Shown here one piece after another: positions 26,362-56,415 of a DNA stretch of 64,000 nt (positions within the stretch are counted from its first letter, which is position 1; every line of letters begins with the position of its first letter). The stretch is taken from NCBI GenBank assembly GCA_965218095.1, contig OZ244587.1:3296001-3360000 (forward strand), given 5' to 3'. Origin of the DNA: Candidatus Poribacteria bacterium (GTDB lineage: Bacteria > Poribacteria > WGA-4E > PCPOR2b). The position numbers and the translations under genes are program-made. Under the pieces are notes generated by a model. The model was not told the DNA's origin. It saw only the letters and a program-made list of their open reading frames with translations, and searched no databases.

Positions 26362-26407
26362 TAAAAAACGCCTGTCAATTCGTCCTAGGGACGAAAGTGA
26401 CAGGCGT
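26362..26407 (-). terminator. Intrinsic terminator of the T-box leader
   Basis: ACGCCTGTCA/TGACAGGCGT stem followed by a U-tract on the minus strand. Confidence 0.85.
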
Positions 26408-26640
26408 CAAAACCTTCCGCGGTACCACCCTAATTGGCAAATATAGCATTTGCCCACTTCATTGGTCGTTTCGATAACGGTGAAACTCCCGGCACGAGCC
26501 TACTTGCCTGCAATCGGCGTTCAACTCGGCGGCTCCAGGATGAAATTCGGTGGCTCGTTCCAAAGATACGCTTTCAGCCGGTGACGCATCCTCTCTGCTT
26601 GGAAGCCTCCAACCGCTTACTGTGTCCCTTCACAACCTTT
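26362..26640 (-). promoter_or_regulatory. Phe T-box riboswitch (tRNA-dependent antitermination leader of pheS)
   Basis: Minus strand shows an AGTA box, CAGAGAG and GGCTGAAA stem-I loops, specifier GAATTTCATCC (UUC/UUU), T-box AATTAGGGTGGTACCGCGG (26417-26435), then the terminator ACGCCTGTCA...TGACAGGCGT-TTTTT. Confidence 0.92.
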
Positions 26641-26693
26641 ACACAAACTCAATTTTATAATGTAGCCCCGAGCGTGGTCGGGATTTGAGTCCA

Positions 26694-38065: not shown

Positions 38066-39865
38066 CTATTTTTTGGCACGAAAGACGCCACTGCCGTTGG
38101 TCCCTGCATAGAGCATCTTCCCGGAAGCCACCAATGCTGTGACACTCGGATTTGTCAATCCCGCGTTGACAGACAGCCAAATATTTCCCCCATCCCCAGA
38201 CTGAAAGATTCCACTGCCCAAAGAGCCCGCGTAAAGGGTCGTTCCGGAAGCCACCAAAGATCTGATGTCGGGATTCGTCAATCCTGTGTTAATCGGTGCC
38301 CACGTATCGCCGCCATCCTCAGAACGAAAAACTCCGCTGTCCAAGGTGCCCGCATAGAGCGCCATATCCACAGCCAACAGTGCATAGATGTCTGCCTTTG
38401 TCAACTCCGTTTTGACCCAGGTGTTTCCCCTATCTTCGGAACGAAAGACCCCACCGCCCAGTGTGCTCACATACACTACTTTGCCCAAAACCGCAAAAGA
38501 CGTCACACTAAAACTGATCAACCCGGTGTTGACCCAGGTGTTTTTCTGTTTGTCAAAACGAAAAACACCGCCGTCGGTGCCTGCATAGAGTGTGGTGTCC
38601 AAAACCCACAATGCGTAGATACTAAAATTCGTCAAGCCCATTTCTATCCATATCCGCCCTCTGTCCTCAGAACGAAAGACCCCATTCCCTAGTGTACTTA
38701 CATAGAGCCTCCCGTTTGAAGCGACCAACGAAAAAACATCGGGACTAGCCAAGCCGGTGTTGATCCATGTGTCCCCTCTATCTTTGGAACGAAAAACCCC
38801 GCTGCCCAAAGTGCTCGCATAGAGCATTGTATCATCAATTACCAGAGAGGTGACCTGGGGGGACGTTAAGCCTGTACTGACTTGTGTCCAAGTAGCGCCG
38901 CCATCTTCGGAACGAAAAATTCCACTGCCACTGGTGCCTGCATAGAGCGCGGTGTCCAGAACCAATAATGAGAAAATATTGGTTCTGGACAATCCGGTAT
39001 TGATCGCGTGCCAGGTGTCCTTCTCACTCCCTAATCGAAAAATACCACCGGAGGTCGCCACATAGAGGTTTATATCCAGAAACGAAAACGACCAAATGCT
39101 GAGATTCAGTAATCCCATATTGCGCCAGGTCTCCTGCGCCGCATCGTAGCGAAAAACCCCCTTCATATCACTACCCGCATAGAGCGTCCCCTCAGAAACC
39201 GCCAAAGACATGACATCAACATCTGTCAACCCTGTGTTGCGCCAGGTATTCCCTTCATCGTCCGAGCGATAAACTCCGCCCCCCAAAGTGCCCGCGTAAA
39301 GCGCGGTGTCCCAGATCGATAACGCCAAAACGCTTGTGTGTCTCAATCCCATGTTGACTTGGGTCCAGGTATCTCCTCCATCTTCAGAGCGATAGACCCC
39401 ACCACGCAAAGTGCCTGCGTAGAGCGTCGTGTCCAAAGCAGACAATGCCCTGACGTCGGGACTCATCAATCCCGTGTTGACTTGGGTCCAGGCGTCCCCC
39501 GCATCCACCGACCGAAAAACCCCGCTCGGCGTGCCTGCATAGAGCGTTGCGTCCACGACCAACAGTGCAGTGATATTATGATTCTTCAAGCCTGTGTTGA
39601 TCGGTTTCCAGGTCTGCCCTCCATCCTTGGAACGGAAAACTCCGCCCAGAATGCCGGCATAAAGTGTACCGTTGGCGGTCGCCCGGAGGACGCGGATTTC
39701 ACCGCCGTAGGGACCATTTGTCTGCTCCCATATCAACCCCCTTGCGGAGGAGGATAACGTGCCACGGAGGAAACCGCAACTTTGACAACTGAGTAACGCG
39801 ACTATCAACGCAAAGATATGGACAGCGCGTCCTGCCTGTCGCAGCAAAAAATCGAAGTGTACCAT
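38066..39865 (-). CDS. BNR/Asp-box (WD40/YVTN-like) beta-propeller, probable lipoprotein
   Basis: GPYGGEI followed by about 14 repeats of ~39 aa LYAGT.GGGVFRS.DGG.TW...NTGL; LLSC lipobox-like. Confidence 0.88.
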   Translation of the reverse strand: MVHFDFLLRQAGRAVHIFALIVALLSCQSCGFLRGTLSSSARGLIWEQTNGPYGGEIRVLRATANGTLYAGILGGVFRSKDGGQTWKPINTGLKNHNITALLVVDATLYAGTPSGVFRSVDAGDAWTQVNTGLMSPDVRALSALDTTLYAGTLRGGVYRSEDGGDTWTQVNMGLRHTSVLALSIWDTALYAGTLGGGVYRSDDEGNTWRNTGLTDVDVMSLAVSEGTLYAGSDMKGVFRYDAAQETWRNMGLLNLSIWSFSFLDINLYVATSGGIFRLGSEKDTWHAINTGLSRTNIFSLLVLDTALYAGTSGSGIFRSEDGGATWTQVSTGLTSPQVTSLVIDDTMLYASTLGSGVFRSKDRGDTWINTGLASPDVFSLVASNGRLYVSTLGNGVFRSEDRGRIWIEMGLTNFSIYALWVLDTTLYAGTDGGVFRFDKQKNTWVNTGLISFSVTSFAVLGKVVYVSTLGGGVFRSEDRGNTWVKTELTKADIYALLAVDMALYAGTLDSGVFRSEDGGDTWAPINTGLTNPDIRSLVASGTTLYAGSLGSGIFQSGDGGNIWLSVNAGLTNPSVTALVASGKMLYAGTNGSGVFRAKK

Positions 39866-40209
39866 CGTTTTTAGCCTATTTCTACATCTGAATTTTTTGT
39901 GATTTAACCTTGAATTTAGAGCGAACTTCTGTGACAATACTTACAGTTAAACCACTAATATCCTTGTAAAATAGTGTATTAGTGAGCACGATGGTTTACA
40001 CTTTTTTCACCGCCGAGGCGCAGAGAACACAGAGGGCGCCCCGAGTCAAGGTGGGCGATTCGTCCGCTTCTGTTCTCGTTTTCCTCGTTTTTTCAACTGT
40101 AAGCCATCACCTTGACCAATACAATCTTTGTAAAATAGGAGTGGATAATCAAGGGGGGTTTCAGGCAAAGATAGCTTTCTAACTCAACGCTGAAAGGAGA
40201 GAAACCACG

Positions 40210-40569
40210 ATGAGACAATTTGGAATCGCAATGCTAGTCGTAGTCTTATTTCTGTTTAGCTGTTCCCAAAAGCAAGACACATCGTCGGCGGGTTTAGCGG
40301 GGATCGCCGTCGCACCGGCGCTGGAAACGATAACGCTTGAAGTCGACGGCATCGCTTGAGGTGGGTGCGTCCATACAGTGCAGTTAGCACTGAAAGAAGT
40401 TCCGGGCGTTTCCTCGGTTCACATGGATATGACTACCAGAAAGGCCGTCGTTCAAGTTGAAAAGGGGAAGGCTACTGAAGATCAACTCGTGGATGCGATC
40501 AGTAACGCAAATGGCATGCACGAATATCGCGCAACTGTTGTTAAGCCAGACCCAAAATTTGGCGATTGA
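40210..40569 (+). CDS. Heavy-metal-associated (HMA, MerP/CopZ-like) lipoprotein; candidate selenoprotein with Sec at codon 50 (UGGC)
   Basis: AAGGAG RBS; lipobox LFSC; ITLEVDGIA-TGA-GGCVHTVQLALKEVPGV matches HMA 'GMxCxxC'; hairpin CAGTGC-AGTTA-GCACTG at 40376-40392. Confidence 0.85.
40376..40392 (+). promoter_or_regulatory. Putative bacterial SECIS hairpin
   Basis: 6-bp stem CAGTGC/GCACTG; loop AGTTA with G at position 2; loop begins 22 nt after the UGA. Confidence 0.65.
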
Positions 40570-40582
40570 GACCAACTCGTTA

Positions 40583-42016
40583 TTATAAATCCAGCCTATG
40601 CCGAGCCTCTTGTTGAGATACCGGTGTCAACGCATTGGACACTTTAAGTGTAATATATATCTCTTTCGAGTGGGGGTGAGACGCCAGAATCTCAACATTG
40701 ATGTGGTCTACATCAGCAATACTATCGCGGTGGTATTTAACCCAAGTTGCTAGTAATTGAAAATCCATGGGTTTTCCGTTAAAGTAGAGGTAATCCAAAC
40801 CATAATACCTCAAAGGAGAAACCCATGGACATCCAAATTGCAACCATTTTCTATCTCTGTGACAAGCTCTTAGAAGCACTCAACTCAAAACCACACCCAC
40901 AAACGCAGATGTCTGATGCCGAAGTGATGACCACCGGCATCGTCGCTGCGTTGTTCTTCGGGGCAAACTTGCAAACCACTTGTGACTTTCTAAAGACTCA
41001 TGGCTATATACCCAAGATGCTTTCAAAAAGTCGATTCAACCGACGACTTCATCGAATTAAACCGATGTTCACCACATTGTTCAAAATCTTGGGACGAAGC
41101 TATGTGCAACTTAATCAACAGAAAATCTATGCACTGGATACCATACCAATTGCTGTTTGTTCCGCATTCGTCGGTCAAAAATCTACACCGATAAGGCATA
41201 TCGAGGCTATCAAGCGTCCAAACGTCGGTATTTCTATGGCTTGAAAGTTCATCTGCTAGTGACTGCGAGTCGACACCCTGTTGAATTTTTTGTGACCCCA
41301 GCCAGTACAGGGGACGTTGAAGGGTTACAGTGGTTTGACTTCGACTTGCCACCGGGCTATGGTGACAAAGCATACAATAATTATGAGATAGAAGATATTG
41401 TTACATCAGTCGGAGTCGAATTAAAGCCAGTACGCAAGAAGAATTCCAAGCGGCTGTATCCACCATGGGAGACCTACTTGGCTAATTACCATCGTAAGTC
41501 TGTTGAGACGGCTGGCAGTTTGATTAACAAACTGCTTCCACGTTCAATCCATGCAGTAACGCAACACGGATTTGAATTGAAAGTGGTCTTGTTTGTATTG
41601 GCTAGCAGTATCAATCAGCTCTGAGTTCACTCACATATTCGATGAATAGGTCGCAACTTGGGTTATTTAAGAAAAAAATGAACCTAGTAGTCGATCTCCG
41701 TTTCACTCACACTCAATTGAATTTTACCATTGAACATGGTCATCGCCGCTCTCTCTGATGCCGAAAGTTGTTGATCTTTTTGGATAGCTAATTTGAAGGA
41801 GGCACTTCGATTAGAGATAATAAGTGACTCTATCAAATCCTCCTTTAGCTGACATAAACCCAGATACCAGTCTGCAACGGAATGAGCCCCAAAATCAATC
41901 AAAACTGATTTTTGATCGGCAAGATTCTCCACACGAATTTCAACAGGTAACTTCAAAAACATCTTCATTTGGACGTTTTGCAATATTTCCCCAGTTTCTG
42001 GATTCAGTTGTTCCAA
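40583..42016 (-). pseudogene. Hypothetical protein split by IS982 and carrying a TAG stop
   Basis: Removing the IS and one TSD gives the continuous frame ...SETEIDY*VHFFLKYHRDSIADVDHINVEIL...RHRLDL*. Confidence 0.7.
40740..41663 (+). mobile_element. IS982-family insertion sequence (924 bp) with a frameshifted transposase
   Basis: TIRs ACCCAAGTTGC / GCAACTTGGGT; TATTTA duplication at 40734-39 and 41664-69; MSDAEVMTT, LSKSRFNRRLH, YFYGLKVHL, GDKAY, RSIHAVT..GFELK; frameshift near 41160. Confidence 0.92.
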
Positions 42017-42158: not shown

Positions 42159-42611
42159 TCAAGTTTCCGCCCCAGATTTCGCCAACTTATCAACCTCTTT
42201 GAAGAATTTACCGATCGTCATCTTAGATGCTCCACCGATGATTCTCTGTCCCACACGGGCAAGTTTGCCGCCAACCGTCAATTCCCCGTCAAGTGCGACC
42301 GCTGTTTGATCCGTCTCGTTCTCCTCCAGGGTAAAATCACAAGCCCCCTTGAGAAACCCGATTTTGCTTTCACCTTGAACGACCAGGCGATACGCTGAAG
42401 GCGGCTGTTTATTCTCGATTTTCACTGAGCCTGTATACGTTCCTTTAATTGAGGCAATTCCTACCTTAATGGTCGCTTCAAAGGTATCGTCACCAAGCGG
42501 TTTAAGTTCTTCGCAACCGGGGATACATTGTTGTAAGAGTTCAGCCTCCGTAAAATACTCCCATACCTTTTCACGGGGGGCAGGTACTGTGTAATCGCCT
42601 TTGATCTGCAT
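42159..42611 (-). CDS. coxG: CoxG / SRPBCC-family accessory protein
   Basis: VPAPREKVW...LQQCIPGCE...VGGKLARVGQRII. Confidence 0.88.
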   Translation of the reverse strand: MQIKGDYTVPAPREKVWEYFTEAELLQQCIPGCEELKPLGDDTFEATIKVGIASIKGTYTGSVKIENKQPPSAYRLVVQGESKIGFLKGACDFTLEENETDQTAVALDGELTVGGKLARVGQRIIGGASKMTIGKFFKEVDKLAKSGAET

Positions 42612-43005
42612 TTCTTATTTCCTCATATTGTTAGTAAAGTTTACTTTGTCAAAAAGATTAATCAGTTTTACGGCGATCTTTTCCATAGTGCTTAAATGCC
42701 TCTGCCAGTCTTCTCCAATCGTCCTTGTCCTCGAATATTTCCTTTAGGAAAACCATATCATCAATCTCAACAAACTCGGGCCAGAAAAGCCTGCTATAGA
42801 AGAGCGCATAAAATCCGGATCCTTCTGCGTGAAGGAGGTCAGGTCAAAGAAGTTAAATCCCGTTGTATCACGATTTGAGTACATCGTATGAAGTCGTTTA
42901 ATCCATGACCTGACCAAAGCGAGCAGAATAGACATTCTCAATCTTGGTACCGGGCATTGTTAGAATGTCGTCTACAATTTTTTGAGCCACTGTGTTGATA
43001 TCGGA

Positions 43006-43121
43006 CTAGCACGTTGGCAGAAATAATTGAACAGTTGGAAGAAACCGAGTTTTTGCCAAAAACTCGGTTTCTAACCCCAACGGTTTCTAAATGGTAAAGG
43101 ACTTCCGCCACGCTGTACTAG
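43006..43121. mobile_element. MITE-like element bounded by CTAG, with an internal perfect palindrome
   Basis: CTAGCACGTTGGCAGAA...TTCCGCCACGCTGTACTAG imperfect TIRs; internal AGAAACCGAGTTTTT-GCC-AAAAACTCGGTTTCT. Confidence 0.65.
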
Positions 43122-43325
43122 CTACCTTTCGGTTGGCCAATTCCCGTGCTTCTGTAAAGCACGTCCCGCCTTAGTTAAGCCTCCACTTCGATCTGCTTGG
43201 TCGATAATGCGGGCACCATCAAATAACGCCCTTATTCAGTCTTTATTCACGATCCAAACCCTAACATGAATAAAACGTAAAACGCAAGGTATCACCTTTT
43301 ACGTTTTACGCATTACGATTCCTGA

Positions 43326-44180
43326 TCAAGACGCTGCCTGTTCAATCGCTCGACGGGTGTAGACCTTCGCTAGGTTCTCACGGTACGCCTGACTTGCATG
43401 GATGTCTTCCAAAGCATCTACCCCATCAACAGCTTTCTCAGCCGCTGCGGCGATGTTCTCGGTGGTGAGCGCCTTGCTCGTCAACTCGGATTCGACGCCC
43501 GTTGCGCGATAAGCCACATCGGCGACGCCGGTAATGCTGATGGCAATTTTCTGGCAGGTGTGTCCAGATTTTGTCAGGACAACCGCCACGCCGGTGAGGG
43601 CAAATCCTGATGCCACCTGATGCAGCTTGAGGTATGTTCCTTTCGTGTTAGCATCCGGAATTGGCACATGAATTGCGGTAAGGATCTCTTCGTCTCCGAG
43701 ATCGGTTTCGTACAGCCCCTGAAAGAAATCCGTGGCATTGACAACGCGCTCACCATCAGGGCCAGCAACATGGATTCCAGCATCGAGCGCCAGAATTGTC
43801 GCGGGCCAATCGGCAGCTGGATCGGCGTGCGCCAGACTTCCGCCAATGGTGCCTTTGTTGCGTACTTGTACGTCACCGATTTCACCAGCTGTCTGAGCGA
43901 GGACCGGAACTTTCTGCTGAACCAGACCTGACCCCTCTAGTTCATAGTGGGTGGTCAATGCGCCGATAACCAGTTTTCCATCAGACTCAGAAATTCCTTT
44001 CAAGTCGTTGATATGTCCAATATCGACGATGACCGCTGGTTCAGCCAACCGCAGCTTCATCGTCGGAATCAAGCTATGTCCACCAGCAAGCACCTTTGCA
44101 TCGTCCCCATGTGCCTGTAAGAGCGACAACGCTTCATCGAGTGATGTCGGTGCAAAGTATTCAAAACTCCCCGGGATCAT
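43326..44180 (-). CDS. coxM: FAD-binding medium subunit, CO dehydrogenase/xanthine dehydrogenase family
   Basis: MIPGSFEY.AP, LAGGHSLIP.MKLR, QVRNKGTIGGSLAHADPAAD. Confidence 0.9.
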   Translation of the reverse strand: MIPGSFEYFAPTSLDEALSLLQAHGDDAKVLAGGHSLIPTMKLRLAEPAVIVDIGHINDLKGISESDGKLVIGALTTHYELEGSGLVQQKVPVLAQTAGEIGDVQVRNKGTIGGSLAHADPAADWPATILALDAGIHVAGPDGERVVNATDFFQGLYETDLGDEEILTAIHVPIPDANTKGTYLKLHQVASGFALTGVAVVLTKSGHTCQKIAISITGVADVAYRATGVESELTSKALTTENIAAAAEKAVDGVDALEDIHASQAYRENLAKVYTRRAIEQAAS

Positions 44181-46528
44181 GAGTTGTTCCCTCCTTTCGC
44201 GTCTTGGATCGCCTGCCACACGTGGTTCGGCGTTAGAGGCATATCAATATGCGTAATCCCCAACGGCGATAAGGCATCCACAACCGCATTGACGAGGCAC
44301 GGCGACGAGGCAATCGTTCCGGCTTCACCAACCCCTTTGACCCCCATCGGATTCACAGGAGATGGCGTCACCGTATGGTCCGTTTCAAAGCGGGGCAACT
44401 GCGTCGCCTTGGGAACGGCATAATCCATCAATGAACCGGTCAAAAGTTGCCCGTTTTCATCGTAAACCGCGCCTTCATACAAGGCCTGCCCTAAGCCTTG
44501 TGCAATGCCGCCATGTACCTGTCCGGCGACCAGTAAGGGGTTAATAATATTCCCGCAATCATCAACGGCGACATATCGCTGCATATCGATCTCGCCGGTG
44601 TCGGGGTCAACCTCAACCACTGCGATGTGCGCGCCAAATGGATAGGTGAAGTTCGACGGTTCAAAGAAATGCGTCGCTTCAAGTCCGGGTTCGGTATCCG
44701 GGGGGAGATTCTTGGCGACGTGCGCTTCCAGCGATACCGTTGTGAAATCAACGGCTTGATTCGGCGAACCTTCCACAAAGATCTTTCCATCTTCAAAAAC
44801 GAGGTCATCGGGGTTCGCTTCCATCAAATGCGCCGCGAATTTTGCCATTTTTTCCTTCACCTGACCCGCGGCGATAACCATCGCAGTTCCACCGACAGCC
44901 GTCGCACGGCTACCGAATGTCCCGATGCCGTAAGGCTGCCGTCCCGTGTCGCCATGGATAACCACAACATCGTCAATGTCCACCCCCAACTCATCGGCGA
45001 TAATCTGCGCAAAGCTGGTCTCTTGACCCTGGCCGTGTGGCGAAACGCCGCTCAACACCGTAATTTTTCCAGTCGGCTCGACCCGGACAGTACTACTTTC
45101 CCAACCGCCGGCAGGCATGGCTATTGATGGCCCCATTCCGCAGATTTCGGCATAGGTAGAGATGCCAATTCCCAGGTATCTTCCCTGCTGACGAAGTTCC
45201 GCTTGCTGATTCCGCAACCCATCGTAGTCGACAATTCCCAATGCCTTGTTAAAGCTTTCCTGGTAATTGCCACTGTCGTAGATAATGCCAGTAGGGATTT
45301 CAAGCGGAAATTCTTCTGGCTGCGGGAAGTTCTTAAATCGAATATCCTTCGCATCCATCCCCAGCTCCTGCGCCGCCAGATCTACAATGCGTTCAATGAT
45401 GTAGGTCGCTTCTGGGCGTCCTGCACCACGGTAGGCATCTGTCGCCATCTTATTCGTCAAGACGCCGATCAATTCCAATTTGACATTTGTAATCTTATAG
45501 GCCCCCACAATCATGAGGTTCGTCAATGTGGGAATGAGCGGGGTGAGCAATTGATAGGATGCCCCGAGATTGGCGAGTATTTTCGCGCGAATCCCTGTGA
45601 TTGTCCCATCGTTTTTGACCGCGAGATCAACGTAGTTGACCTGATCTCGCCCATGAATCGTCGTCGTAAAGTTCTCCGTCCGCTTTTCGACCCATTTCAC
45701 AGGTTTACGTAATTGAATCGACAAATGTGAGACAATAACCTCTTCAGGGTAAACGTTCAATTTGCTGCCAAAACCGCCGCCAACTTCCGGGGCGATGACG
45801 CGGACTTTCTGTTCAGGAACGTTGACAGCAAGAGACAACTGAGTTTTGAGAATGTGTGGAACCTGTGTTGATGACCACACGGTTAATGTCCCTTCGCCCG
45901 GAAGGTATTCAGCCAAGACTCCACGTGTCTCCATCGCGTTTGGAATCAGACGCTGGTTCACGAACCGCTGAGAAACAATGTGGTCGGCTTCAGCAAAAGC
46001 CCCATCCACATCTCCCGCCTCTAACGGCATTGTAAAGCCAATATTGTCGCCAAAGTCTTCGTAAATCAGCGGAGAATCCGGCTCCACTGCCTGATCCAGA
46101 TCAACGACAGCAGGTAGTTCTGCATATTCAACTTCAATCAGATCCAGTGCATCTCGGGCGATATACGGATCGATTGCCACAACCGCGGCAACCGGCTCCC
46201 CAACGAAGCGCACTCGTCCCGCCGCTAGCGCGGGGTGATCGGGAGCCTTGAGGTCCGGAATCTCCGCACCGCAGGGAATCCCGCCAACCTTCCCCTCAAG
46301 ATCTTCAGCGGTAACCACAGTAACGACGTCGGGCAGATTCTTCGCGGCTTCTGTATCAATGCTTTTGATCTCTGCGTGCGCATAATCGCTGCGCAGGAAC
46401 GTACAGTGAAGGGTTCCCACCAGCTTAATGTCATCGACATAGTGGGATAACCCTTGAATTAACCTCGGATCTTCGCGCCGTTTAATCGGGGCGCCCATCA
46501 TCCGAGTCGGTGCCGCCATTGTTGCCAT
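44177..46528 (-). CDS. coxL: Molybdopterin large subunit, form II CoxL-like
   Basis: RREDPRLI, VGGGFGSK, active-site loop AYRGAGR (form II), GQGQETSFAQI, KGVGEAG. Confidence 0.9.
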   Translation of the reverse strand: MATMAAPTRMMGAPIKRREDPRLIQGLSHYVDDIKLVGTLHCTFLRSDYAHAEIKSIDTEAAKNLPDVVTVVTAEDLEGKVGGIPCGAEIPDLKAPDHPALAAGRVRFVGEPVAAVVAIDPYIARDALDLIEVEYAELPAVVDLDQAVEPDSPLIYEDFGDNIGFTMPLEAGDVDGAFAEADHIVSQRFVNQRLIPNAMETRGVLAEYLPGEGTLTVWSSTQVPHILKTQLSLAVNVPEQKVRVIAPEVGGGFGSKLNVYPEEVIVSHLSIQLRKPVKWVEKRTENFTTTIHGRDQVNYVDLAVKNDGTITGIRAKILANLGASYQLLTPLIPTLTNLMIVGAYKITNVKLELIGVLTNKMATDAYRGAGRPEATYIIERIVDLAAQELGMDAKDIRFKNFPQPEEFPLEIPTGIIYDSGNYQESFNKALGIVDYDGLRNQQAELRQQGRYLGIGISTYAEICGMGPSIAMPAGGWESSTVRVEPTGKITVLSGVSPHGQGQETSFAQIIADELGVDIDDVVVIHGDTGRQPYGIGTFGSRATAVGGTAMVIAAGQVKEKMAKFAAHLMEANPDDLVFEDGKIFVEGSPNQAVDFTTVSLEAHVAKNLPPDTEPGLEATHFFEPSNFTYPFGAHIAVVEVDPDTGEIDMQRYVAVDDCGNIINPLLVAGQVHGGIAQGLGQALYEGAVYDENGQLLTGSLMDYAVPKATQLPRFETDHTVTPSPVNPMGVKGVGEAGTIASSPCLVNAVVDALSPLGITHIDMPLTPNHVWQAIQDAKGGNNS

Positions 46529-55231: not shown

Positions 55232-56415
55232 GGAATAAACCGATTTATCAAGCTTTGGCACTGATCTTCCTGGGAGCTGCGCTGATTGTGTGGTCCGGTT
55301 GTGGCAGTGACGATAATCCTATAGTAACAGAAGATACACTAGACGACGATTCGACCCCTACAATCGATGATCCGACTCCCGTAGTCTTGACCGGTAGCCT
55401 GAAAGGGCAAGTGGAAACCATTGAAGGCGTACCGATTAACATCCAGGTCCTGCAAAATGGCAAAGTGATCGCCTCCACCCAAACCAATGCCGATGGAAAT
55501 TACCAAATCGATAGCGTTGAACCGGGAACTTACACCGTTCAAATCACAGCGAAAGGCTATCGAGCCGCCGACCTGACCGTACAAGTTATCGCTGATCAGG
55601 TTAAGCCACTTGATAAGGTGGCGCTTGAGGCATTAGAAATTCCTGTTTCTCACATTCGAGGACGCTTATCAGACCAAGCGACGAAGAAACCCCTTGACCG
55701 GGTTCGTGTTCAACTTATCGATGACGCGGGCAATATCCGTGAGGCGCTGACAAAGGCAACAGGCGTCTTTGAATTTGAAAATGTCCCCGCAAATCAGCCA
55801 TTCACCGTACTGATCGATCACGATGGATACGAGCAGCAGGAAATTAAAATCGATCCAGTCCCGGCCGCTGAAGCCGCAAAGATCACAAACGAACTTGTGC
55901 CAGTTCAGCAAGGGGAACAACCCCCGGTCGGTGAGGGTCTGGCAATCGGCGCGAAAGCGCCAGATTTTCGTCTGCCCGATGGGGATGGGAAGATTCACGC
56001 CCTCGCCGATTATGCGGTGGAAAAAAAGATTGTGCTGGTGTTTTATCGAGGGATCTGGTGACCGCATTGCATCAATCAACTCGGAGAGTTGCAGAAAAAC
56101 TATAAAAGGATTCGAGCAGAAGGGGCGGAAGTTATCGCGATTAGTTCGGATACACAGGCGGAGACGAGACGGACTATTGAGAAGGTCGAAAGGCGCTTTG
56201 GTGCCGAAATACGGTTTCCTGTGCTTTCCGATGCGGAGACACAGACCATCGCCGCCTATAATGTAACCGATCCCCTCAATCACCGGCTTGCACGTCCGGT
56301 GACCTACATCATCAATGAGAGCGGGACGATTCGGTGGAAGTTCCTTGATGTGCGGGTCGGCAATCGGATAGCGCCCGACAAGGTTATTGATAAGTTGAAA
56401 AAATTTAATAAGTAA
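55222..56415 (+). CDS. Lipoprotein with two carboxypeptidase-regulatory-like domains plus an AhpC/TSA (peroxiredoxin-like) domain; candidate selenoprotein with Sec at codon 280 (UPHC)
   Basis: Lipobox WSGC; APDFRLPD...VLVFYRGIW-TGA-PHCINQLGELQ continues in frame to AISSD, FPVLSD, PVTYIINESGTIRW; hairpin CAACTC-GGA-GAGTTG. Confidence 0.88.
56077..56091 (+). promoter_or_regulatory. Putative bacterial SECIS hairpin
   Basis: Stem CAACTC/GAGTTG; loop GGA begins 21 nt after the UGA. Confidence 0.65.

Follow-up and report, generated by a model that had tools for sequence, protein, structure and literature searches.

An unannotated gene of Candidatus Poribacteria predicted to encode an exported selenocysteine lipoprotein with an HMA metal-binding domain

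Results

One reading frame across an in-frame TGA codon

The window analysed here is a stretch of 64,000 nt (C1:3296001-3360000) from a genome of Candidatus Poribacteria, a sponge symbiont, that consists of one contig of 6.35 Mb. Positions 40210-40569 of its + strand form a single frame of 119 codons when an internal TGA is translated as selenocysteine (Sec, U). We consider it likely that this frame is one gene, encoding an exported Sec lipoprotein of 119 residues with a U-G-G-C site for soft metals. Translated in this way, the product is MRQFGIAMLVVVLFLFSCSQKQDTSSAGLAGIAVAPALETITLEVDGIA-U-GGCVHTVQLALKEVPGV...KFGD-stop. The mechanical list of open reading frames (ORFs) contained its two halves only, 40210-40359 (49 aa) and 40378-40569 (63 aa).

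All parts of the gene described in this section are located on the + strand. A Shine-Dalgarno-like AAAGGAG was read at 40193-40199, and the ATG codon is found 10 nt further on, at 40210. The start codon and the lipoprotein signal peptide occupy 40210-40263. In translation the signal peptide is MRQFGIAMLVVVLFLFS-C, with a basic start MRQ, 12 hydrophobic residues and a lipobox L-F-S-C that ends in Cys18 (40261-40263). An earlier reading of the bare sequence (the original prediction) had named a ribosome-binding site, the start codon at 40210 and a lipobox, and all three are present. It had also assumed export as a lipoprotein, which is supported by the alignment: the lipobox Cys column was invariant in 19 of 19 homologs. 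The lipoprotein call, made from a signal peptide, a lipobox and an invariant +1 Cys, is one of sequence pattern.

In the AlphaFold2 model a low-complexity linker, residues 19-37 (40264-40320), joins the lipid anchor to the domain; its sequence and length differ from homolog to homolog in the alignment. The domain itself is an HMA domain, residues 38-111 (40321-40542), according to Pfam PF00403, AlphaFold2 and Foldseek. It contains the in-frame TGA as codon 50 (40357-40359), with the surroundings ...ITLEVDGIA-TGA-GGC-VHTVQLALKEVPGV. From the comparison with homologs, the predicted Sec is the first ligand of the U-G-G-C motif, and Cys53 (40366-40368) is the second. Downstream of the codon, a hairpin CAGUGC-AGUUA-GCACUG that resembles a selenocysteine insertion sequence (SECIS) spans 40376-40392, with the arms at 40376-40381 and 40387-40392 and the loop at 40382-40386. 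Both the hairpin and its loop start, 22 nt past the TGA, were present as originally claimed.

The true stop of the frame, 40567-40569, is TGA as well by sequence and translation, and behind it we found no hairpin of the SECIS-like type. In a consensus scan the + strand was free of terminator-like sites, and nothing resembling a promoter was detected 5' of the gene; the promoter-like sites that it did report were two, the number expected from shuffles.

Parts of the window were present in each of four metatranscriptome runs, all of them from a single sponge study. Two contigs of these RNA libraries (40321-40515 and 40284-40447) extend across the TGA by 31 letters or more in either direction, a third one covers 40193-40382, and no change was seen at 40357-40359. 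Since metatranscriptome contigs bridge the unchanged TGA, we conclude that the codon is not an assembly error.

The gene had been described as hidden, and the matches for it in a collection of 5.8 billion proteins were indeed fragments: the searches found no full-length product there, and the window protein matched one fragment of 69 aa. For a homolog from the planctomycete Rohdeia mirabilis, the same collection returned one 101-aa 'hypothetical protein' with 47% covered.

An HMA domain that spans the codon

According to the original prediction, the TGA stands where the HMA motif has its first Cys, and running an HMA profile across the read-through product was proposed as a check. The Pfam HMA profile (PF00403) matched this product at residues 42-100 with an E-value of 3e-12 and a score of 47.2 bits (cut-off 24.8). 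Because this single match spans codon 50, the TGA is positioned within the domain, at the first Cys of its motif, as had been proposed.

An AlphaFold2 model built on a 19-sequence alignment had a mean predicted local distance difference test (pLDDT) score of 79.4 for the whole protein, with block means of 92-97 for residues 41-100 and of 47-51 for residues 1-30. Residues 1-37 were disordered, with no secondary structure ahead of residue 38. Residues 38-111 formed a confident beta-alpha-beta-beta-alpha-beta (ferredoxin-like) fold, with strands 38-46, 67-73, 78-84 and 107-111 and helices 51-62 and 90-99. In this model strand 1 precedes the TGA and helix 1 comes after it, and U50 and C53 are located at the start of helix 51-62. 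By its score, by its fold and by having the ligands in the loop ahead of helix 1, the protein belongs to the Pfam HMA family.

The top solved structure in the Foldseek search was MerP of Ralstonia metallidurans (1osd_A; E 2.3e-7, target-normalised TM score 0.92, 36% identity), and a PDB sequence search agreed with Foldseek on MerP. The next structures in the Foldseek list were PacS, CopZ and ATP7 domains; HMA structures filled the list.

No NCBIfam model reached its cut-off for the window protein or for any of the 19 aligned homologs. The best scores of the window protein were obtained for CopZ_AFE_1862 (52.1 bits, cut-off 85) and UxxU_metal_bind NF041115 (48.8 bits, cut-off 95; profile positions 4-65 of 74), followed by MerP TIGR02052 (48.4 bits, cut-off 92.55) and MerT_CopZ_Se NF045683 (35.2 bits, cut-off 375). 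NF041115 resembles the window protein in that both are small HMA-type domains with selenocysteine at the CxxC ligands. However, NF041115 has two Sec residues (UxxU), while the window protein has one (UxxC), and the 74-position model lacks a signal peptide, while the window protein starts with a lipoprotein signal followed by a linker. We do not assign the protein to NF041115; the 19 homologs were likewise far under 95 bits, the best of them with an E-value of 5.2e-18. The CopZ/Atx1-type copper chaperones (NF047957, NF033795, TIGR00003) share the HMA fold and the motif, but with the window protein none of them reaches its cut-off (85, 91 and 62 bits). CopZ proteins work in the cytosol with Cys ligands, whereas the window protein is predicted to be exported and to use Sec.

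Selenocysteine in an HMA motif is already established, since both the selenoproteome literature and NCBIfam list such proteins. In the parts of four papers drawn on here (PMC13188914, PMC9312934, PMC1976440, PMC2398784), the listed selenoprotein families include a 'putative mercuric transport protein' and a 'putative mercuric reductase / metal-binding protein' (UxxU, NF041115). The ocean metagenome (GOS) table in the part seen of PMC2398784 has 'Mercuric transport protein MerP' as a selenoprotein family, an entry that may include proteins of the present kind. The tables of PMC13188914 and PMC9312934, as far as they were available, contain Sec-bearing HMA domains of membrane transporters that are also UxxC, Sec again replacing the leading Cys of the motif. 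There the domain is part of a membrane protein, whereas the window gene would code for a free-standing exported lipoprotein. Full-text literature searches found no description of an exported UxxC HMA lipoprotein family and no account of the abundance of this family in Poribacteria, although supplementary selenoproteome tables may list such sequences. We classify the gene as unannotated and as a new addition to a type of selenoprotein that was known before. The picture of Sec use is left unchanged, because Sec in HMA motifs is on record.

The TGA codon in homologous genes

A six-frame search of 41 related genomes produced matches in all 41, each genome having at least one small frame (~110-170 codons) with one TGA inside. 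The matches without TGA were mostly long frames, taken as transporters or WD40 fusions, and otherwise small Cys forms, few in number. In L010-L029, the 20 best loci, the sequence is without exception [D/N/T/E]-G-[I/L/M]-x-TGA-G-[G/S/A]-C behind a lipoprotein signal, and the true stop was TAG or TAA in 19 of the 20 nearest relatives. About 28 further Sec forms were found in L030-L049, with the motifs UGSC, UGAC, UASC, UGGC and UGNC, often as tandem gene pairs. For example, in L030-L039 (families f2 and f3 of the same order) most genomes have two Sec-HMA lipoprotein genes in tandem, 100-200 nt apart.

The homolog search for Cys/Sec pairs suggested earlier did find them. Five Cys forms (L040-L043) have CGSC, CGNC, CGAC or CGKC at this site of the alignment, the in-frame UGA of the window gene being aligned to their first Cys. 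The original prediction was to be given up if all close homologs had Cys and no conserved hairpin; we observed that close and distant homologs alike keep both the TGA and the hairpin.

The small Cys-type HMA lipoproteins differ from the Sec forms in one more respect. Four of the five (not L043:1939-2277) add a C-terminal K-S-C-C-P, while the Sec forms are without it. It may provide a second pair of ligands in compensation.

When the whole phylum was sampled, 95 of 101 genomes matched at E<=1e-7, and at least 90 of the 101 had a TGA-bearing small frame among the matches listed; the sampled genomes are related and the TGA counts are not independent events. Two of the matching genomes (G052 and G062) had frames that were not among the matches listed, one (G027) had a Cys form only at this threshold, and two (G041 and G042) had long Cys frames only. 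The six genomes with no match at E<=1e-7 were mostly from other classes.

A candidate SECIS hairpin

Covariance of the hairpin among homologs had been named as a further check. We took 66 nt around the codon from Sec forms collected by protein similarity, not by hairpin, and obtained a gap-free alignment of 43 distinct sequences. RNAalifold folded it into a single 7-bp helix (columns 26-32/36-42) with a 3-nt loop, in the same columns in the 43 sequences; the window gene has a version of 6 bp with a 5-nt loop. Compensatory changes were reported by RNAalifold in three helix pairs. At pair 32:36, 26 sequences have A-U and 13 have G-C; pair 26:42 is A-U (28), C-G (4) or U-A (2), and pair 30:38 is G-C (39), G-U (3) or A-U (1). 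For a 9-pair structure 79.1% of the cells were paired, compared to 73.2% in shuffles, none of 500 shuffles reaching this value, and the fraction dropped to 20.9-54.5% when the 3' partner was slid by 1-3 columns. The covariation score was 0.212 versus 0.113 in shuffles, again with 0 of 500 reaching it. A conserved stem-loop with covarying pairs is therefore present downstream of the codon.

The arms of the hairpin encode K-V-Q-x-A-L, a conserved HMA peptide. For this reason the codon choice was compared between the Sec forms and 27 Cys-type HMA domains from the same genomes. The Val7 codon was GTG in 42 of 43 Sec forms (the lone GTA is compensated) compared to 8 of 21 in the Cys-type domains, and the Ala10 codon was GCA in 38 of 39 Ala codons of the Sec forms compared to only 2 of 19. 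Synonymous codons in the arms of the Sec forms are thus under strong constraint.

Near the beginning of the apical loop, bacterial SECIS elements have a G, frequently as GU. The geometry of the window gene's hairpin is resembled by those of the hairpins in the SelD gene of this genome (see below) and at a second TGA in the window, at 56059, and the loops of all three carry what we take to be such an early G.

The second TGA, in frame at 56059-56061 (context 56020-56120), is surrounded by ...VLVFYRGIW-U-PHC-INQLGELQ. Judged by this sequence, the candidate looks like a redoxin/peroxiredoxin-type UxxC selenoprotein. Its hairpin, CAACTC-GGA-GAGTTG, starts 15 nt past the TGA. The loop starts 21 nt past the UGA here and 22 nt past it in the HMA gene, close to one another as the original prediction had it.

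Several results count against the hairpin as a dedicated signal and thereby against our interpretation. A single-sequence fold of 71 nt had z = -1.13, with 31 of 200 shuffles folding as well; the support for the hairpin is the comparison with relatives, its own sequence alone being not significant. The counts in the hairpin set overstate independence because the sequences are related, and for the pairs changed on both sides (4 of 9) as many were reached by 68 of 500 shuffles. The nucleotide conservation is partly protein-driven, since the arms encode the peptide mentioned above. The minimum free energy of the sequence 3' of the codon did not separate the two groups, with means of -9.4 kcal/mol for Sec and -9.3 kcal/mol for Cys forms, in a comparison whose Sec set still held three false regex hits. 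Moreover, a weaker hairpin occurs at the same place in Cys-type domains with the same peptide (L043, L169, L170 and L175). Searches against Rfam gave no SECIS-type match, either at gathering thresholds for the whole window or at E<=10 for 40300-40460.

Decoding capacity of the genome

By the terms of the original prediction, the genome had to contain tRNA-Sec and SelB, and both were found. The tRNA-Sec scored 76.6 bits (cut-off 47), and the SelB wing domain scored 75 bits (cut-off 23.2) in a 646-aa frame directly before tRNA-Sec. SelA scored 605.7 bits (cut-off 267.9) and SelD, at C1:5447425-5448348 (-), 371.1 bits (cut-off 125), so that selA, selB, selC and selD are all present above curated cut-offs. 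The SelD frame has an in-frame TGA of its own, KTCG-U-AAKV, and a hairpin with the loop AGUU 17 nt past the UGA; selenophosphate synthetase therefore appears to be itself a selenoprotein here.

Among the stop-to-stop frames of at least 400 codons in this genome, 536 of 1373 end in TGA, and TGA is otherwise an ordinary stop. From the sequence evidence taken together we predict with high confidence that the gene is decoded with Sec at UGA-50.

Architectures and neighbours

The spread of the family was followed with a degenerate DNA pattern, composed of the motif and the hairpin core, in one genome per species. The pattern detected at least 119 stretches (L050-L168), with 149 matches listed. Since the matches were selected by the hairpin core, they are uninformative on hairpin conservation and were used solely for taxonomic spread and architecture. 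Among the matches listed, most stretches belonged to Candidatus Poribacteria. The other phyla were Nitrospira/Nitrospirota, Acidobacteriota (Acidiferrales, Terriglobia, Bryobacteraceae), Latescibacterota, Planctomycetota, including the cultured Rohdeia mirabilis Pla163 (L064), and Verrucomicrobiota (Akkermansiaceae).

Small frames with an upstream lipobox made up 87 of the 149 matches listed, and small frames without it another 18; those of Acidobacteriota and Nitrospira in the latter group appeared, by eye, to have ordinary signal peptides. C-terminal HMA domains of long proteins accounted for 39 of these matches, one of which, that of Rohdeia, is in fact a small lipoprotein preceded by a long open frame. 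The remainder were two N-terminal domains of larger proteins and three matches that were due to chance or cut. The fusion type, seen in many Poribacteria (37-39 of the 149 matches listed), is an exported protein of ~540 aa in which PSCyt1 (haem-c motif) is combined with a WD40 propeller and, at the C-terminus, a U-G-A-C HMA domain, as for example in L050:144-1766 (-). Cys versions of this fusion in the genus g4, of ~580 aa, keep a weakened hairpin.

The window protein ends in G-M-x-x-Y-x-A, as do homologs from Acidobacteriota and Nitrospira (L051, L052, L055, L087, L116, L161 and L164), while most Poribacteria forms end in G-F-S-A instead. A FastTree phylogeny of 218 domain sequences (74 columns, chance regex hits included) had L011 and L012 as the nearest relatives and was too weak to tell whether the shared ending reflects gene transfer.

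Within the genome there were five HMA matches. Three of them fell into two long frames of the Cys type, of 915 and 707 aa, which are probably P-type ATPases. The other two represent the stand-alone HMA genes, and both of these are Sec-type lipoproteins: the window gene and a paralog with U-G-A-C at L044:1987-2349 (-), about C1:2246286-2246648 (HMA match C1:2246304-2246483). The paralog is divergent to an adjoining multihaem cytochrome c gene (L044:2399-4300). In another genus, locus L048 had the same cytochrome neighbour motif.

The window gene is flanked by a BNR/sortilin-like gene (38066-39937, -) and, just downstream, by a DDE transposase fragment (41157-41624). Beyond this fragment, CoxG-, CoxM- and CoxL-like (molybdenum hydroxylase) genes were found at 42159-46528 (-). 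Elsewhere in the window we observed a T-box leader at 26384-26642 (-), with 97.2 bits.

Discussion

In the mechanism that we propose, the lipoprotein signal peptide would carry the product over the inner membrane, with a lipid anchor at Cys18, and the flexible linker of ~20 residues would hold the single HMA domain in the periplasm or at the cell surface. SelB and Sec-tRNA(Sec), directed by the hairpin at 40376-40392, would read UGA-50 as selenocysteine, and because of this reading the metal-binding loop would be U50-G-G-C53 and not C-x-x-C. The selenolate/thiolate pair would most likely coordinate a soft ion, Cu(I), Hg(II), Ag(I) or Cd(II), in a linear geometry, and the metal would be buffered or handed over in the cell envelope of the symbiont. 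Considering the HMA fold and selenolate chemistry, we lean towards soft-metal binding in the envelope as the job of this protein, with clearly less assurance than we have in the decoding of the codon. The chaperone or scavenger of the original prediction is in the same way a role predicted from the HMA fold.

Besides the hairpin results given above, some observations speak on the other side. Neither the window locus nor its relatives, which have other neighbours there, had a conserved metal-related neighbour. The RNA evidence is of low depth and from one study, with DNA carry-over possible. Sec insertion, metal binding, the identity of the metal and any partner are what we infer, and the metal specificity entirely so.

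The main rival of a metal-binding selenoprotein, which we consider unlikely, is a redox role tied to c-type cytochromes. The protein would be a real selenoprotein, but its U-x-x-C would act as an envelope redox centre (selenenylsulfide/selenol) and would not bind metal passively; together with c-type cytochromes it could, for instance, reduce metal ions or partners, or pass electrons to them. This idea was prompted by the PSCyt1-WD40-HMA proteins, which in many Poribacteria join this Sec-HMA domain to a haem-c-motif PSCyt1 and a WD40 propeller, and by the multihaem cytochrome c gene that adjoins the paralog. The best solved match is, by its entry title, an oxidised MerP with a disulfide, and the part of PMC1976440 drawn on here describes bacterial UxxC selenoproteins as mostly thiol oxidoreductases. 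However, the fusion and the neighbourhood are associations, and the window copy has no cytochrome neighbour. The domain type itself also argues for a metal site, as HMA domains with CxxC are established metal binders. Much less probable again is that the gene codes for MerP proper in a Sec version, that is, for the periplasmic Hg(II)-binding part of a mer mercury resistance system. MerP (TIGR02052; PDB 1osd, 1afi) is likewise a single exported HMA domain, it is the best structural match and a good sequence match, and its name appears among the ocean-metagenome selenoprotein families in the portion seen of PMC2398784. Against this, the window protein stays below the TIGR02052 cut-off (48.4 versus 92.55 bits), no mer genes are nearby, and in the genome, with its completeness of 93.9%, the MerT profile had no match and the best MerA-model match, 400.4 bits, is under the cut-off of 454.45. 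The predicted lipid anchor is a difference as well, MerP being a soluble protein.

Two further explanations dispense with selenium, and we find both hardly credible. If the TGA were a genuine stop, the locus would be a pseudogene or two small ORFs with no full-length protein. Standard ORF calling does yield two halves, public protein sets contain fragments only, and a transposase fragment is nearby; yet the TGA stands exactly at the ligand column in at least 90 of the 101 sampled genomes among the matches listed and in other phyla, all relatives keep the frame open on either side of it, the two halves make one HMA fold, and both a hairpin and a Sec machinery exist. Alternatively, near-cognate decoding or a change of the code at this site could place Cys, Trp or Gly at the UGA, a reading that no specific observation favours. 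TGA is the commonest terminator of long frames in this genome, the window gene itself ends in TGA, a dedicated hairpin with the geometry of that in the SelD gene stands behind the codon, and a complete Sec pathway is encoded.

A wider proposal goes beyond the single gene, and we put it forward as an improbable speculation. Exported U-x-x-C HMA proteins could form a phylum-spanning unannotated system of single genes, tandem pairs and haem-c/WD40 fusions, in which selenolate sites anchored in the envelope capture or redox-process Cu, Hg, Ag and Cd outside the cytoplasm together with c-type cytochromes. If true, this would be a distinct extracytoplasmic module of selenium-based metal handling, beyond a Sec version of MerP or CopZ, and sponge symbionts would depend on selenium for metal handling, since their hosts concentrate such metals.

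For the predicted selenoprotein itself, annotation pipelines split or drop the gene, and the selenoproteome and the extracytoplasmic metal handling of Poribacteria and of some Acidobacteriota, Nitrospirota, Planctomycetota and Verrucomicrobiota would consequently be under-counted. The homolog in the cultured planctomycete Rohdeia mirabilis Pla163, which lies at L064:650-991 (-) and has U-A-S-C at the site, makes the prediction testable at the bench. Natural Sec/Cys pairs of a very simple, well-understood metal site are available in this family, and with them the gain that selenium brings to soft-metal binding could be measured.

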